IMG/VR virus record: IMGVR_UViG_3300001528_000425
Span: 128,001-192,000 of that record
Length of the DNA stretch: 64,000 bases
From: a virus
Lineage: Duplodnaviria > Caudoviricetes
Direction: 5' to 3' (one strand)
Shown: positions 39,045 to 47,537 of the stretch, one piece after another
Layout of the letters: every line of letters starts with the position of its first letter
Numbering within the stretch: the first letter of the stretch is position 1
Program-made: the position numbers and the translations under genes
The notes under the pieces: model-generated
Told to the model about the DNA's origin: nothing
The model's input: the letters and a program-made list of their open reading frames with translations, nothing else
Database searches by the model: none

Positions 39045-39509
39045 CGTTTCTTCAATGTAGTTCGTTACTTCTACATCCGAATGTGGTATCCACGAATGGA
39101 CCTGCATTCAGCTGTGGGTGTTACCCACATGTCGAGACTATATCTTCTTCTTGTATACCAAGTGATGAACACTACGCGTATGTTGGATCATACGTTACTC
39201 GAATTGGTCATACACAAGAAGTCTCCCGTTTCCGCCCACTTAGGCGTACACCGCGACAAACCGGTTAGTCGTTGAGCACACTCCTCATTACAAAAAAATA
39301 GGGGAGCTTCGCTACTGGTTGCCCCCGATGCATCGTAGATCCAACTACGATACACGGAGTCCGAAAGGACTCGCATAGAACTTCTTAATCCGTCACGCTT
39401 GTCGTTTCCAACTACGTTGTGGCGTTCTACACTTGTAGGATGTTCCAGTGATTAGGTGAGAGTTCAACCGGCTGTCGCCAGCCGGCCGGACAGGTTAACA
39501 AGATTCCCG

Positions 39510-40508
39510 TTACAGATAACTGTAACTCCAACCATCTGGAGCGTTTCTTCCGTGACAGTACTTCAATCGATAATTGAGACAGGTGATAGAAATGTTCATA
39601 TCATCTGCGCACGATCTCGTGTTGAAATATTCACGGATCTCTCCAGTTGTAGAGTGAACTGCTTTTACAGCTTTCCATCCCATGGTGTTGGCATATTCCA
39701 CATTTGGATTGCCAGTTGGTCTCCATGGTCTTGGATCTTCTTTGTATTTAATCTGCCAGAAACCCTTTACGACCGGATGATATTTTCCGGATAAGAAGAG
39801 CGACATAGACGCCAGAGATATCTCCAAAAATTTGGAAGCATCCGTGATTTTGGCAAATTCTATCTGCGCATCGTAAAGTATATTTCTAGCCAACACCGGT
39901 TTAGATCTACCGTACGAATCCATCTGCTGAGAGATGCTATCTAGTAAATCTGTTCTAGCATTCGGGTGCAGAGCGCGTTTGTATATCTTTCGTTCAGGAA
40001 ATATCTTTCCTGGTGCTTTTGTGAGACGATACAACACAGCATCTTTACTGATACCGATTGCCTTCGCACATGCAACATGACTAGGATAATAATCAACGCG
40101 TCCGGTGTCTATGTCGAGAACGAAAAGCGGAATGCACTTTGGAGATATTCCCATCTTTCCGGCGTGTTCAGTGTTTTCTTTTGAAGTACACCATTCAAGA
40201 TTTTCAACTCTATCATCTCCGGCTTTCCCGTTGAGATGATTGACTTGTAGTCCTCTGATGTTATCTCTCGGTTTGAATACCAAACATAGAAGTCTATGAC
40301 GCAGAGGCATCGTACGTATTTCATACGGCGCGTCGTTGTCTTGATGAACGTGAAATTGATAGTACGGTCCTTTGGCCAGTAGATGTGGCTCAATAATCTT
40401 ACCATCACGTTTACGTAGCATCACTCCTTCTCGACTGAGTAAATACTTGCTGTATCCAGGGATCTCGTAGAATCCTGGATATTCTTCACTTTCTTTTGGT
40501 TGCTGCAT
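39510..40508 (-). CDS. HNH homing endonuclease (NUMOD4-HNH-NUMOD1-like)
   Basis: FYEIPGYSKY, VNHLNG...DRVENLEWCTSKEN..H, C-terminal HTH-like repeats; AGGAG RBS before ATG 40508. Confidence 0.9.
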   Translation of the reverse strand: MQQPKESEEYPGFYEIPGYSKYLLSREGVMLRKRDGKIIEPHLLAKGPYYQFHVHQDNDAPYEIRTMPLRHRLLCLVFKPRDNIRGLQVNHLNGKAGDDRVENLEWCTSKENTEHAGKMGISPKCIPLFVLDIDTGRVDYYPSHVACAKAIGISKDAVLYRLTKAPGKIFPERKIYKRALHPNARTDLLDSISQQMDSYGRSKPVLARNILYDAQIEFAKITDASKFLEISLASMSLFLSGKYHPVVKGFWQIKYKEDPRPWRPTGNPNVEYANTMGWKAVKAVHSTTGEIREYFNTRSCADDMNISITCLNYRLKYCHGRNAPDGWSYSYL

Positions 40509-40556: not shown

Positions 40557-40602
40557 CATAAAACCTTGCAGAAGATACTTACGCTATGAGCTCTTGTAGA
40601 CT

Positions 40603-43600
40603 ATCGTCGTTAGTGACGCACGGCATCAGAATCGAGCTAATAGACAGGATATTGGACGGTTTCAGATCAGCGATATTCGGTGGAGAAGACATCCCTCGGG
40701 CGTTGACGATAATGGGGTCGACAGGAGCAATTGCATTCATGCCAACCTTGTAGTTGTCAACAGTAGCCTCGGAGATAGTCCCCATGGAGTCCGCTGAATA
40801 CTGACGGTCCGGAATACGAAACGATTCACCTTGTCGACCACCTGCACCTGCATGTGAGAACTTGGTGTACTGTTTAATATCGTCGATCGGGTTGATGATC
40901 GAGACATTGTCCATCAACTGTTCGGTCATGATCCTCTGTTTGATGAGGTATTCGCTGATCGACCAGGTTCTCTTGGCACCGATCGAACGATTCCGGTAAG
41001 TAGCGAATGCTCTTGCCAGTTCGTTGTAGATGATGCCAGTGATCTGTTCTACGCCTCTCAGTCGATAGTTCACAACTGAAGATGCAGGAAGATGTTCTCT
41101 GGTGGTGAGAAGTGTTGTTGCTCGGATCAGAAGATCTCGAACATTCGTTGGTTCTCTCATCTGTCTCAAGATGTCTCTGGTCATGGGATCGATGAACAGA
41201 TCGAAGAAATCGTCGATACCTTTGATGTTGTTCATGCTCAGTCCCTTGGTCTGGATGAGATCGTAATAGACGTTCTTGTCGTCCATGTCTTCGAATAGAA
41301 CATTCTTCAGATCGAAGTTGTTCAATCCTGCGAACAAGAGAGAGTTGACCTGAGGTGTACGACTGATGATCAATCGTTTATCTTGGAACCGAATGATGAT
41401 ATCCGAAGCTTTCGCATCGATACGCGAACCAACTTCTTCCAATCTGAAATCCACATTGCAGTATTTCAGCATCGTAGAGAGACCGAATCGATAAGACAGA
41501 GCGAAGATGACCGGAATGGATTTGTTCAGGAGTTTCAGATCAACCCACTCATTGAGTGGAGATGCTTGAACATCCGACAATTCCGCCAGCTTGTCGATCA
41601 TCGTTCCGACGAAAGTCTCCTCCCCAGAAGTGAGGTTGACTGATGTCAGTGTACCATCGACATGGATGAAATGAGCCGTAGAAGTACGGTTACTGAACCC
41701 GCAGAGGACTCCATACTTCTTCTCTTGCTCTTCGATTCCAGTTCTGAATTTCTCAGGAATCTCTGATACTCGATCGTCGTATTTGAAGAAGAATCGATCA
41801 TCGGCTACATCTCCTCTGTGAAATTCGACGTAATGATACTTCAACCCGATCGTTGTGTAATCGCTTGCCAATGGTATCATCGGATACTCGTTGGTACCGA
41901 AAGTGGTCGTGATCACAGACGAGGTCATTTTGTCGAAATACTTATCGATGTAAGCAAGGAAACTGTGTGCAACGTTCGTGTTACGTTCAATCAAACACTT
42001 GTTGTAGTTGGAGTTCAACGTAACACGAGTCGGACTGACCTTGCAGATCGGGTTGGAGATGCGTTGCTTGCTCAGCGACTTGATCGATCCATTTACCAGA
42101 CAACGTCCGGTTTCATCGATGTTAGGGATCGTGAACCGAATGGTGTGGTTCTTGTGCCTGGAGTCTTCGTACCGGAAGACGTACTCTTTCAAGTCGTTCA
42201 TAGCATCAGATACCGTCTTCTCTTCCACATCCGTCAGGAACATGCCCTGTGGAGCGAAGGAAGTGGCAACTGCAGCTAAGTCTTTCTTGAAGACTCTCTG
42301 AGTGTAGACCTGATCCAATGTTTCGATCGTTGATCCAGTCATATCGGGCATGGGAACTTCTTCCTTAATGAAAGGAAGTTCGTTGTCCTCCACATGGATC
42401 TCTGCAGGTTTACTGAGAAGTTCACCGATCGGTTCTCCACCGATCTTGATCTCCTTGTATTTCTTGGATACCGTGACAGCATGCGTTGCTTGGGCTTTGG
42501 TTAGATCGGAAGTTTTCTCCACTGCAGTCTCTGCAGCTTTGTCCAACTCCTCAACATCCTTGGCAGCGAACTCGGTCTGATCCACTTCTGGAAGAGGTTT
42601 GGTGAATCCAGGAGTATTGGGTACGTCCTTATTGGTATTCACGGTAACTAACTCTTCCTGAGCGATGTCAGCTTCATCTTCTGTCACCACACCCTCTGCA
42701 CCACGATCAGCCAACCGATTGATCTGATTCATCAGACGCAACAGCAAAGCATTGCTTCTGCCGTTCAACTGTTTGAGGGTTTTCAGGTTGTAAGCGAGGA
42801 AGCTATCTCCAGCTGTAAAGATAAAGTTGACTTTATCCCAGTACTGGGTGGGGAGTAATTCGAAGATGGATGAGTTGAAGTTCTGCCATGTCTCGAACGC
42901 TTCCATGGCACCGACTACTTCATCTTCCATCTTACCCATCTCGTAACTTCGCAGGTAGGAGAGGAAATCAGCATCGGTGAGACCAGTCAGCTCGTTCTCT
43001 TCGTGCTGCCAGCCTTCCATGGCGGCATTGGCTTCATCTTCCTCTTCTTTGGTCATTTCGACAACTGGTTTATCGTCAACTTTGATGTTCCGGTTGGCGA
43101 TGATAGCGTAGAAGTGAGCCAAGAACAGATACTGGGGAATTTCTGGATAGACCAGAGAAACCTTATCCATCTGTTTGAACACTCGCATGAAGTGTTTCTT
43201 CTCGAATCGCATGGCCGCAAGCGGAATGTGGATGAAGTGTTGACGATTCGGTGCTTCTACCAACTTGTTCATGATGGTCGCAAGCATGAACGCCATGAAC
43301 TTCATCCGCCGTCGCATGCCAGTTACTCTGGCACGATAGAGCGGGTTGTAGTTGACGATGTCGATCGTAACAGCACGTTCTGGCATCTCGGTGATGCTGT
43401 TAAGGATACGGATACCTGGCATATTGGCTCGCTTATAAGCGGCCAGTGCTGTCAATAATCCAGCAGAAGGAAAGATGATGCCTTTGGTGTCGAACGGAAT
43501 GAGAGGTTCTTCTCCTCGTCCAGCGGGACCTGTGACGTGAACGACGAACTTCTTGTGATCGTTCAGATTGATGATTGGGTTGTCCGGTCGAGGAGCCATG

Positions 43601-43749
43601 GAAGGAGGATCGACCATCTGGAAGTTATCCAGCACATGCAGGATCGTCTCCAGTGGCATCTCCGGAACATCAGCCAACTGTTTTAACTCGTTGAACTGAG
43701 AAGCCCTCCAAATCATCTGTCGACGGACAAAGTTTGGGTATCTTATCAT
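40603..43749 (-). CDS. Virion RNA polymerase beta subunit (phiKZ gp178-like), exon 1
   Basis: KVSPTRVTLNSNYNK, YRLRGVE, INPI, GGR, GTISEATVD..KVG, MPCVTNDD; AME sites after an N-terminal propeptide; spliced length ~1434 aa. Confidence 0.88.
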
Positions 43750-43890: not shown

Positions 43891-44979
43891 ATGCGATTTA
43901 TTGTACCTAAGGCCAGCAAGCAAGAGCTTGTTGTCACGGATAGCATGCTTGTTTCCGCCGCGGAAAGTCTCAGCGAAGAGCGGGAGGAACTCACTGCTGC
44001 CATCAATGAACATTCCGAGGCTGAACAAAAACTCGAGGCTATCAATGCCACCGCACTCGCCCTGGAAACCATGGGCTACACGGACACTTTCCTGACCATC
44101 TACAACCGCGACGGCGTTCTGCTGTCTGAGCTCGGCCTGGTCAATGTGGTCAGTGGATCGATGGAAGGCATGGACGAAGCCAGCAAGGCGGAAGATGCGA
44201 AGAAGGTCAAAGAAGGCCTCGATGAAGCCAAAACCAAAGCGGAAGGTGTGCGTTCTAACGCTGCCAAACGCATGGTCGAAGCCGCGATCACCTTCCTACG
44301 GAAGTGGTTCACGACCAACGAGTATCTGGCGAAATCCATCGCCAAGAACACCGAGAAACTCAGCTCTATGAATGAGAAAGAGTTCGCGGAGATGCCGGCA
44401 ACGATCTTCTCCGATGATCAGCTGCAAGCCGTCTTCGGTGCCACTGCTCCGGTCATGGCTCTGCTGAAGAAGGTTCTCGAAAAGGGAGTCGCCGCTTACA
44501 GCAAGAAGGAAGGCTCTCCGAGTGAAGTCGAGTTCTGGAAATCCATCGGCTGGTCCAACAAGATCTCTGCGATCGGCATCACGCTTGGCGATCATGGCAT
44601 CACCATCGATACTGCCAAACCCAAAGCCACCAAAACCACCTACGGCGAAGCCAGCTGGACCAAACCTTTCCTGACCAGTGCTTCCAAAGAAGCGCAGGCG
44701 GCTCTCCGCTGGAACCGTAAGGAACTGGCGACGATCATGAAGGCTCTGGACAAAGCTGCAGTTTCGGCTGTTACTCAAAACAGTGGTGAAACCGATCTCC
44801 CGACTCTGTTCAAGATCACTGGCACGGCGATCCGTATCGCCAAACGTCAGTCCACCCTGCTTTCTTCTGCCGCAACCCAGGTTGATCTCGCGATCCGACG
44901 AGCGGCTGGCGTCAGCAGCAAGGAAGCTGAACCGAAGAAGGATGACGAGGCTGCCAAGAAAGACGAAGCCAAGAAGTAA
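43891..44979 (+). CDS. Internal head protein
   Basis: AAES, ALE, SME sites; DTFL..YN..G.L..ELG segment resembles 52525. Confidence 0.75.
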   Translation: MRFIVPKASKQELVVTDSMLVSAAESLSEEREELTAAINEHSEAEQKLEAINATALALETMGYTDTFLTIYNRDGVLLSELGLVNVVSGSMEGMDEASKAEDAKKVKEGLDEAKTKAEGVRSNAAKRMVEAAITFLRKWFTTNEYLAKSIAKNTEKLSSMNEKEFAEMPATIFSDDQLQAVFGATAPVMALLKKVLEKGVAAYSKKEGSPSEVEFWKSIGWSNKISAIGITLGDHGITIDTAKPKATKTTYGEASWTKPFLTSASKEAQAALRWNRKELATIMKALDKAAVSAVTQNSGETDLPTLFKITGTAIRIAKRQSTLLSSAATQVDLAIRRAAGVSSKEAEPKKDDEAAKKDEAKK

Positions 44980-45049: not shown

Positions 45050-47503
45050 TTATTTGAGATCTTCCGGATCAGGATCTTCTGTCATGTTGTACATGGTAAG
45101 AGACACCAAGTCATCGAAAGCAAGTAGAAGCTTGCCACTCGGTGACAGATAGTTATTCAAAGTCTTGAGATAACCCAAGGCTTCTTCATTGGCTTCCTTA
45201 CTTAAGATAGGAACCCAGTTGACAGTGTCATAGACGACTACACCTTCGTTAACAACAAAGACTTTCGTGGATTCCACAAGGAAGTCGTAGACTCTCTGCG
45301 GACCGAGAGTAGTGATGTTCTTCGGATAACTCCAGATGATATCCTTATTGTTCAATCGCTGCCACAGGGGAGTTTCTTTCCCGATATAGTCAGCGTATTG
45401 CATCAGTTCATCCCTCTGGATAAATCCTAAAGTCTTGACTCCCGTATAGGTTCTCAGATAGTTTTCTTCCTCTACGGTGAGAGGAATAACATCATCTTCC
45501 CGATCGTGTACAATGGGAGAGCTCCAATTGTCCGAATCTCCGAATAACGGTTTCCGTTTGAACACCGGAATCCTTGTGGTTGCGTTCGTATCCTTAGGAG
45601 CAATCCGTCGAAGACCTCCAGTATTCTGATCGAATACCGCCAAAGATTCATTGGTAGAAACTCCGATCTCACGATTTGCTACCGTACAAGACACAGCTTC
45701 GCAATCATCTTCGATTGTCACGCCAGAAATAGGTTCCCAGGAACCTTGGTTGGGACCGGATTGATAACTCATGATTTCGCAACCAGGAGCTACATCGAAG
45801 ACTCTCGCTCCATTTCTGTCGAGTTTGAACGGACCGGTGACCGGAAACTCTTGCATCTGGATCTCACAGTAGTTCCATCCATCTTTGGTGAGGAACGTCT
45901 TATCCTTCAGATTCTTGAGGATCGAATCTTTGTCGAGTTGACTTGCCGAATAATCGGCCGTCTGCAACTGAGTATACCAAAGATTGGTATATCTCAAGGT
46001 TACAGTCGTAGTACCAATAAGGCAGTTCCCATCGAAATCTCCCCCTAACGGCGCAAGTCGACTTGGGTGTAGAAGCAATGCATCGGTGAACGAACTGTTC
46101 AAGATCGGATACTCCGGCATCGTAACTGGTTCAGTTGATCCATTGATCAGTTGAACAACTCTGGAAGGTACCGTGGAGATCAGGTGGATCTTCGATACAT
46201 AGATACTGCCGGCATCCGTTACCGGATATCGAGTTACTGTTCCAGTCTTACCGATCGAAGACATCCAAGTTGCGATATACAAGATCTCGCAATAGGTGAT
46301 CGGTCGGAGTCTGGAAGGATCATACAGCAGGTTCATCTTCTCCAACTGTTGTTTCAGGGAGTTGACATCACGTACAAGGATGATCTGTTGATCCAAGTCA
46401 TAGATCATGAACATGTAGTAATGTTTCTTATTCTCTGTCTCAACTGTGAGAGGACGGAACCTGAAATCAGCATCCTGAAACAAATCGATCATCTTGACAA
46501 TACCTTCACTGGAGAGTAATCGGTCTTTCTCGGATTCAGTGATCGGCTGATATTCCAGCTGAAGGGTTTGCGGATTGATCAAACTCACTTGATCAGAACT
46601 GGCACTCAAGACAGTACTGAAGAAGAACTGTTTCAGGTTGTAAATGACCAGAGGTTGTAAGGCTTTGGCTGCTTGAAACAGAGGAACTTTGGTCTCATCG
46701 ACTTTATGGTACTGCGGATCTTTGGGATCTTTAGCAGCCATAATGGAAGATGCGATCACGTTACGAGTTCCAAGAGCAAGTGCACGTGCACCGTACTTCG
46801 ATTCCAGGAACCCTTTCTTCCCGGTCATCATACTGAGGATGTGAAGATAGATTTCATTCACTTTCCTCTGGATCGCGTAATGCACACTGTCGTAGATCGG
46901 ACGTTGCCAGGCCGAAGGCGGCATAGCCTTACAATTGTTCATCAACGACATGTAAAGGTTGTTGACAACATCTTTCTCTTGTTTCCCATCGGTGATCCGA
47001 ATGTCTCGGATACCAGCAGGGAGAACCAGGAATTTGTCGATCAGCAGCCGATCTGGGAATTGCAGGATCAGATCGATCTTGTCTTCCCGTTTAAGAGAGG
47101 CGTTCTTTCGCCAATTGATTTCTGGGAAGTGAGTGAGGAAGAAAGTGAATCCAGTGTCAGCTTCTGGATCATCTTCCGAAGCATGGTCGAAGTCACCGAG
47201 TTCCTTGTTCCAGGTAGCATATGACTTACCAGACATAATGTCAACATAGAAAGATTTCAGTGCTTTCAGGTTCTGGAAAATAAGCGGATGAAAGACTTTA
47301 CAGTTCAGGTTGATCCAGCCGAAGCGAATCAATCGAGCGTTGGTTCCGATCTGTCCGAAGATCTCCTCAGAGAATAAACCCTGAGGATGGAACATGTTAC
47401 TGGAAGGCTCACGGATCAGCGGAGAAGTGACCTCAAGCATGTTGTACTTGGCGATCTCTTTCTCCACATCCATGAGCGAAAGATTAAATGGATCTCTTGC
47501 CAT
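45050..47503 (-). CDS. Virion RNA polymerase beta' catalytic subunit (phiKZ gp180-like), intein-containing
   Basis: FHPQGLFSEEIFG, VLPAGIRD, GKKG, GTRNVI, TRYPV, LGGDFDG; ~551 aa without the intein. Confidence 0.9.
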   Translation of the reverse strand: MARDPFNLSLMDVEKEIAKYNMLEVTSPLIREPSSNMFHPQGLFSEEIFGQIGTNARLIRFGWINLNCKVFHPLIFQNLKALKSFYVDIMSGKSYATWNKELGDFDHASEDDPEADTGFTFFLTHFPEINWRKNASLKREDKIDLILQFPDRLLIDKFLVLPAGIRDIRITDGKQEKDVVNNLYMSLMNNCKAMPPSAWQRPIYDSVHYAIQRKVNEIYLHILSMMTGKKGFLESKYGARALALGTRNVIASSIMAAKDPKDPQYHKVDETKVPLFQAAKALQPLVIYNLKQFFFSTVLSASSDQVSLINPQTLQLEYQPITESEKDRLLSSEGIVKMIDLFQDADFRFRPLTVETENKKHYYMFMIYDLDQQIILVRDVNSLKQQLEKMNLLYDPSRLRPITYCEILYIATWMSSIGKTGTVTRYPVTDAGSIYVSKIHLISTVPSRVVQLINGSTEPVTMPEYPILNSSFTDALLLHPSRLAPLGGDFDGNCLIGTTTVTLRYTNLWYTQLQTADYSASQLDKDSILKNLKDKTFLTKDGWNYCEIQMQEFPVTGPFKLDRNGARVFDVAPGCEIMSYQSGPNQGSWEPISGVTIEDDCEAVSCTVANREIGVSTNESLAVFDQNTGGLRRIAPKDTNATTRIPVFKRKPLFGDSDNWSSPIVHDREDDVIPLTVEEENYLRTYTGVKTLGFIQRDELMQYADYIGKETPLWQRLNNKDIIWSYPKNITTLGPQRVYDFLVESTKVFVVNEGVVVYDTVNWVPILSKEANEEALGYLKTLNNYLSPSGKLLLAFDDLVSLTMYNMTEDPDPEDLK
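45227..46024 (-). mobile_element. Atypical 266-aa mini-intein in the RNAP catalytic motif
   Basis: Block A CLIGTT, block F/G RVYDFLVESTKVFVVNEGVVVYD followed by Thr; no LAGLIDADG seen. Confidence 0.85.
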
Positions 47504-47537
47504 AGAGCACTCCAATGTTATTTATTTAAGCAGTTTG

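Follow-up and report, generated by a model that had tools for sequence, protein, structure and literature searches.

An intein family at the catalytic DFDGD motif of phage RNA polymerase, found together with Asn in place of the third metal-binding Asp

The element described here is an insert of 266 amino acids in the gene for the N-terminal part of the beta' subunit (phiKZ gp180-like) of a virion RNA polymerase (vRNAP). The gene lies in a stretch of 64,000 nucleotides of viral DNA (Duplodnaviria; Caudoviricetes), positions 128,001 to 192,000 of the IMG/VR record IMGVR_UViG_3300001528_000425. This whole stretch is called the window, and coordinates count from its first letter. The insert has the predicted fold of an intein and belongs to a large family specific to the DxDGD/T site of the beta' subunit of two-barrel multisubunit RNA polymerases (RNAPs); here and below, a slash in a motif marks an intein junction. 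The family is apparently undescribed, since the literature searched for an intein at the RNAP DFDGD site gave no description of one.

The third Asp of NADFDGD counts as an invariant residue of all multisubunit RNAPs. In this family it is nearly always encoded as Asn, so that either the polymerase works with Asn or splicing restores Asp. Hundreds of natural polymerase genes encode Asn at this position, and they do so only when the intein is present. The explanation that we favour is that the insert is a functional mini-intein that lost its endonuclease, that it splices by a class-1-type route with cyclisation of its terminal Asp, and that the resulting DFDGN-T is used by the polymerase; taken whole, we put this at slightly less than an even chance. 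Retention of Asn in the mature enzyme is, considered separately, the most likely outcome, with a chance that is even or marginally better.

The insert and its insertion site

The host open reading frame (ORF), P0001, has 821 codons for amino acids on the minus strand (45050-47515), and the ATG at 47503 is the likely start. The intein-containing precursor, defined from the ORF and by tblastn, is placed at 45050-47503; it and all its parts given below are on the minus strand. With P0001 as the query, tblastn matched 313 phage records at 29-35% identity (residues 9-511 only), annotated as vRNAP beta/beta' subunits of phiKZ-like jumbo phages. The gene is present in a single copy in the 235,559-bp virus record, which carries direct terminal repeats.

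The junctions of P0001 read ...LGGDFDGN/CLIGTT...(266 amino acids)...VYDFLVESTKVFVVNEGVVVYD/TVNW.... In the catalytic motif D-F-D-G-N (residues 493-497, 46025-46039) the third metal-binding Asp is encoded as Asn, here called Asn(-1), by the codon AAC at 46025-46027. The intein extends from Cys498 to Asp763 (45227-46024). It is followed by Thr764 (Thr+1, the C-extein nucleophile; codon ACT, 45224-45226) and by the rest of the C-extein (57 amino acids and the stop codon, 45050-45223), which is homologous to the C-terminus of intein-free beta'N proteins and ends in a conserved ...VPILSKEA... tail. As expected for the in-frame insertion of an intein, 73 intein-free homologues run uninterrupted across DxDGD/T, the phage homologues showing ADFDGD/T(G or S)S.... 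In three intein-free homologues ADFDGD is followed by T or M and then continues in register with the window C-extein. Because the intein-free alleles are continuous with this C-extein, the insertion site is exactly DFDGD/T.

The structure of the insert was predicted with AlphaFold2 (AF2). A prediction from the single sequence reached a mean predicted local distance difference test (pLDDT) of 33, and the model used instead, built with an alignment of 111 sequences, has a pLDDT of 91 and a predicted template modelling score of 0.88. The top 50 Foldseek matches in PDB are all inteins, bacterial intein-like domains or hedgehog domains of the hedgehog/intein (HINT) type (48 at E<=0.001; target TM-scores up to 0.77), and the predicted structure has the HINT fold that characterises the intein/HINT superfamily. 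The Pfam profile Intein_splicing (PF14890) matches the C-lobe only, with 17.4 bits against a cut-off of 35.8, and does not reach its gathering threshold.

The residues at the conserved intein positions are partly canonical. Cys1, the N-terminal nucleophile, has the codon TGC (46022-46024). Block B reads S-T-N-E-S (45644-45658), with Glu in place of His B:10 and with the conserved Asn622. Blocks F and G (45227-45292) read VYDFLVESTKVF...VVVYD and contain Asp744 (F:4), Lys751, the penultimate Tyr762 and the terminal Asp763 (codon GAC, 45227-45229). Since block F of the insert aligns with that of DnaB inteins, Lys751 takes the place of His F:13. The insert therefore has the Cys1 and Thr+1 nucleophiles and the F:4 Asp of a class 1 intein, and lacks the block-B TxxH with His B:10 and the His-Asn terminus of block G, which is Tyr-Asp here. 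Class 3 inteins have no nucleophile at residue 1 and carry Cys at F:4 (the WCT motif); in the insert Cys1 is present and F:4 is Asp. Of all intein residues His B:10 is the best conserved, and only two inteins without it are listed in a review, one of them compensated by Lys (PMC4031507); a family without the histidines at B:10, F:13 and G:6 is thus unusual.

Compared with P0003, a full-length relative (64-70% identical), the window copy lacks about 205 amino acids that hold a LAGLIDADG homing endonuclease. The scar lies at residues ~659-674 (45494-45541), as seen in the alignment with P0003 and as a dip in pLDDT. With its nested endonuclease (LAGLIDADG or HNH in homing inteins) deleted, the window copy is a mini-intein that is no longer able to home.

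The initial annotation of this DNA had proposed an intein in the Mg-binding motif of the RNAP, with Asn(-1), a terminal Asp, Tyr as the penultimate residue and STNES as block B, and had given DFDGD/C...HN/T as the expected layout. The codons are as it gave them, the fold and the family support the intein, and the intein-free homologues carry Asp at the insertion point.

Family-wide conservation and co-occurrence of Asn with the intein

A first search found 12 metagenomic relatives, in which every junction covered reads D.DGN/C ... [YWF]D/T. A profile built from the splicing lobes was then searched against 1.84 billion representatives and matched 696 clusters at E<1e-3, of which 138 reach E<1e-30, with E values down to 1e-105. 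Most members carry LAGLIDADG domains (PF14528/PF05204). Host proteins are the beta'N proteins of jumbo phages as well as fused beta-beta' proteins of 1.7-3.4 kaa (thousand amino acids) with Rpb2_6 and Rpb1_2 domains, and their C-exteins read TMxxHVPV, which resembles DQMAVHVP of Escherichia coli. The intein region had no tblastn match in 50,697 GenBank phage records, and a search of IMG/VR for related loci with the window intein gave no pattern match.

Residues were counted over 176 aligned representatives in a family alignment of full-length inteins, in which the totals differ by position. At position -1 there are 140 with Asn, 8 with Asp and none with any other residue, and residue 1 is Cys in 142/148 and Ser in 6/148. 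The block-B Asn that precedes position B:10 (Asn622 in the window) is present in 168/176, and His B:10 itself in 6/176. Asp at F:4 is found in 173/173 and Lys at F:13 in 153/173. The penultimate residue is aromatic in 169/173 (Tyr 112, Trp 42, Phe 15), the last residue is Asp in 172/173, and residue +1 is Thr in 168/173 and Ser in 5/173. In nine distinct relatives the Asn(-1) codon is AAC (6) or AAT (3) and the terminal Asp codon GAC (5) or GAT (4). This synonymous variation shows that both residues are under purifying selection at the protein level. Together with the conservation across the family it makes sequencing error untenable, in agreement with the initial annotation, which had judged the unusual residues hard to explain as noise.

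The same data bear on the possibility that a dead intein persists here as a permanent domain, that the gene is a pseudogene or that assembly errors produced the odd residues. The endonuclease of the insert is deleted, its three canonical histidines and terminal Asn are all absent and its Pfam score is under the cut-off, as such an element might show. However, hundreds of clusters share the odd residues while the codons vary synonymously, the nucleophiles for splicing do not vary, the gene is the sole copy of an essential virion RNAP subunit gene in a complete genome, and a 30-kDa domain in the buried Mg loop would be sterically implausible. As judged from these conservation data, a dead or permanent insert or an error would be excluded for practical purposes, and we regard it as very improbable.

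Asn(-1) and the intein come and go together. All 73 intein-free homologues have DxDGD and none has Asn; the next residue is Thr in 63, and Q, M, V, E, N and S also occur there. A degenerate DNA pattern for ADFDGNT matched 43 IMG/VR loci, none in an RNAP context and most in one unrelated conserved protein or out of frame. The corresponding pattern for ADFDGDT matched at least 107 loci, and the contexts inspected were two-barrel polymerase motifs. Intein-free relatives with a native DFDGNT, the finding that the initial annotation had named as fatal to its proposal, thus appeared neither among the homologues nor among the pattern matches. The unrelated protein is a highly conserved phage protein starting MPPANQASVGNDALIRN... 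and accounts for about half of the ADFDGNT matches (L018-L021, L027, L028, L034-L037 and other IMG/VR loci).

An extein tree was calculated with FastTree from the N-exteins of 113 jumbo-phage proteins, the motif columns being excluded. On this tree at least 18 changes are counted in the presence of the intein, and likewise 18 in the N/D state. Supported branches gave 13 independent pairs for comparison; about 11 of them show Asn moving with the intein, and none shows the opposite (sign test, p ~0.001). This gain and loss in lock-step indicates that the Asn codon acts as a component of the mobile unit, as co-conversion during homing predicts: a mobile element here carries a change in a host codon along with itself. 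Of the members of the clade with Cys1 and without a block-B His, 140 carry Asn and 3 carry Asp at -1; the first position of the codon is correspondingly A in 140 and G in 3, and the third varies freely. Asn is preferred with the intein and Asp is fixed without it, which amounts to sign epistasis between the element and the host residue.

Other intein clades occupy the same site. One, with P0148, P0153, P0155, P0156, P0158, P0272-P0274 and P0275-like proteins, reads DFDGD/S(C, V or A).., keeps the block-B His (SxDHS) and ends in ..[YW]D/T. Locus L208 combines Asp(-1) and Cys1 with a block-B His and a terminal Asp, and the three His-less members with Asp(-1) (P0025, P0199 and P0228) also keep the terminal Asp. 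A further clade, DFDGD/[EQRS]Q.. with block B ITDDDPRAV and the terminus ..DGVILSN/T, has Asp(-1), a canonical terminal Asn and no nucleophile at residue 1; its mechanism may be class 2/3-like or otherwise atypical. It was seen in the metagenomic RNAPs P0279, P0287, P0297, P0299, P0300, P0303, P0306, P0307 and P0310. As the terminal Asp occurs in clades with Asp(-1), it is independent of Asn(-1). Judging by the sequences, Asn(-1) is confined to the clade that combines Cys1 and Lys at F:13 with the absence of His B:10 and does not follow the terminal residue, and the coupled swap of Asn and Asp between the two junctions suggested by the initial annotation does not hold. In a midpoint-rooted tree of the inteins the His-bearing Asp(-1) pair falls inside the Asn-Cys radiation, a polarity that is not to be trusted without an outgroup.

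The DFDGD motif is a hot spot for introns and inteins alike. In several close relatives the DFDGD codons of the beta' gene are themselves split by a group I intron (Rfam RF00028), which lies upstream of the intein by a few codons (L013:1855-2193 and L014:488-848, with 60.9 and 37 bits; also the contig of P0003). As a result, gene callers start the downstream piece at (M/L)FDGNC. The homologues P0159, P0161, P0162, P0172, P0196, P0227 and P0248 stop after GGD or DFD and then run into unrelated residues.

Splicing route and fate of the Asn

In the route that we favour, Cys1 would form a thioester with the carbonyl of Asn(-1), the N-extein would be transferred to Thr+1, the terminal Asp would cyclise and release the intein, and an O-to-N acyl shift would leave ...DFDG-N-T..., as the initial annotation had expected of canonical splicing. 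These steps would take place with Glu, Lys and Tyr in place of the histidines B:10, F:13 and G:6. The mature virion RNAP would then carry D-x-D-G-N, the side-chain oxygen of Asn serving as the third ligand of Mg-A. Little or no variation is seen at Cys1, the F:4 Asp, the terminal Asp and Thr/Ser+1, and position +1 is variable in intein-free alleles, which supports both the canonical register and a class-1-type route. The C-terminal residue of an intein can be Asp or Gln and still cyclise, Asp being a documented alternative (PMC4031507). Selection for Asn over Asp in the His-less Cys1 clade might be explained if Asp beside the (thio)ester promoted off-pathway N-terminal cleavage, if the carboxamide helped the junction to react without His B:10, or both.

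An active polymerase with Asn is given some plausibility by PolD, a two-barrel polymerase homologous to the RNAP core. Its native motif is NCDGD, it is functional with either Asn or Asp at the first position, and it hosts an intein directly after this Asn (PMC7708050). In E. coli RNAP the third Asp ligates Mg-A only and the first two also hold Mg-B (PMC13198411). A D-D-N triad is conceivable because PolD works with Asn or Asp and because Mg-A is the sole metal held by the third Asp. According to the title of a further study, which PMC7708050 cites, the PolD intein cyclises an Asp that flanks it, and this causes atypical N-terminal cleavage.

Several points weigh against retention of Asn. The third Asp is kept in every intein-free RNAP examined. 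It is held to be universal in textbooks, and to our knowledge an active DxDGN enzyme would be unprecedented. The existence of three His-less members with Asp(-1) indicates that Asn is not chemically obligatory, and if Asn were costly to the polymerase such variants should be found above 2%. Asn is never seen without the intein, and the Asp(-1) variants that exist have not displaced it; this is easier to reconcile with an Asn that is free of cost to the polymerase, which conversion to Asp would make it. The splicing and the polymerase activity of the family members are, moreover, predictions from sequence. Finally, the PolD precedent concerns the first position of the triad, not the third (PMC7708050).

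Some of these observations are what would be expected if the side chain of Asn(-1) lost ammonia during or just after splicing, so that the mature enzyme regained DFDGD-T. Residue -1 is only ever Asn or Asp, Asn(-1) co-varies with loss of His B:10 and is confined to intein-bearing alleles, and its strong preference in the clade is easiest to understand if Asn is cost-free to the polymerase. In other proteins, cyclisation of Asn normally leads to deamidation (PMC4031507). One route could be that Asn(-1) forms a succinimide with the backbone nitrogen of Cys1; such an imide would, in addition, do the work of His B:10 in activating the scissile bond. Maturation would in that case require the intein, since its precise deletion would leave a defective DFDGN gene. 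The literature searched gave no precedent for such intein chemistry, however, and no deamidase homologue was found in this genome. Spontaneous deamidation of Asn-Thr is far too slow. The imide would keep the intein attached through the Asp side chain, and a further cleavage would be needed. In addition, the PolD intein has Asn(-1) natively, as do intein-free PolD species (PMC7708050). We consider conversion of Asn to Asp unlikely, though worth serious attention, and the specific form in which splicing is coupled to it through the Asn-Cys1 imide, with the intein as an obligatory maturation step, rather more doubtful. A gene near the RNAP gene of the relative L012, labelled 'Gln_amidase (weak)', was considered as a deamidase lead and dropped, as it has no homologue in this genome.

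Asp could also be restored by excision in a shifted register, another option raised in the initial annotation. Removal of N-C...Y would leave the terminal Asp as the third catalytic Asp and give DFDG-D-T directly, which is the correct product in all members, whichever of Asn and Asp they have at -1. However, the first residue, Asn, would be no nucleophile, the aromatic residue at the end could not cyclise, and Asp is not known to act as a splice nucleophile at +1. Cys/Ser1 and Thr/Ser+1 of the canonical register are invariant in intein-bearing alleles, +1 being variable in intein-free ones, and alignment of blocks F and G to DnaB inteins of solved structure places them in the canonical register. 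Of all the readings considered we find this one the least probable.

Either of the two principal outcomes would be new, and they differ in what they would imply. If Asn is retained, this would be a natural RNAP working on a D-D-N triad, informative for the two-metal mechanism and as a link to PolD. If it is converted, splicing would edit an extein residue, a new kind of protein-splicing reaction, and any precise loss of the selfish element would be fatal to the enzyme. As an intein group with none of the three canonical histidines, the family also provides a natural model that may serve protein engineering.

Genomic surroundings and comparison with known inteins

A second RNAP Mg motif was sought in the whole genome: PF00623 gave no match, and six-frame regular expressions found no other DxDG[DN] in an RNAP-like context. 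The catalytic motif of a non-virion RNAP in this genome may have diverged or be split. The beta'N and beta genes adjoin each other in the cultured relatives L001-L003; in the window an ORF of 362 amino acids with no Pfam match lies between them on the opposite strand (43891-44979, plus strand), and the contig of a close relative has an opposite-strand gene of 370 amino acids at the equivalent place. A match to the group I intron model RF00028 at 39112-39525 (minus strand; 41.6 bits against a gathering score of 50; E=5e-8) lies downstream of an ORF of 1056 amino acids (40579-43749).

Close parallels include class 1 inteins with a nested LAGLIDADG endonuclease (for example TliVMA/PhoVMA, PI-PfuI) and their mini-derivatives. 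These share the HINT fold, Cys1, the F:4 Asp and Thr+1, and are likewise inserted in frame in a catalytic motif of an essential enzyme. Most relatives of the insert also carry LAGLIDADG, and their sporadic distribution fits a homing cycle. The present family differs in having no His at B:10, F:13 and G:6, a terminal Asp instead of Asn and a long N-lobe (about 122 amino acids between blocks A and B), and in the change of the host codon at -1 along with the element.

The intein of PolD DP2 (Pol II) of Pyrococcus and Thermococcus also lies in the acidic Mg loop of a two-barrel polymerase, with Asn(-1), Cys1 and a C-terminus other than Asn (Gln) (PMC7708050; PMC4031507), and the enzyme that hosts it is active with Asn in the triad (PMC7708050). 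In contrast to the RNAP family, it sits after the first triad position (N/CDGD), where Asn is native even without the intein, and it keeps its block-B His. No specific sequence relationship between the two was found, and in the Foldseek results the PolD intein entry 2lcj ranks only 17th. The Tko CDC21-1 intein is a functional class 1 intein without His B:10, with a compensating Lys (PMC4031507); unlike here, this Lys is elsewhere (Lys58), the terminal Asn is normal and the extein is unchanged. Finally, where an intein ends in Asp or Gln, as in CIV RNR and Pab Pol II among others, the C-terminal residue can still cyclise and resolve the branched intermediate (PMC4031507). Those are scattered cases, whereas in the RNAP family Asp is fixed across a very large group together with an aromatic residue at G:6 and Lys at F:13.

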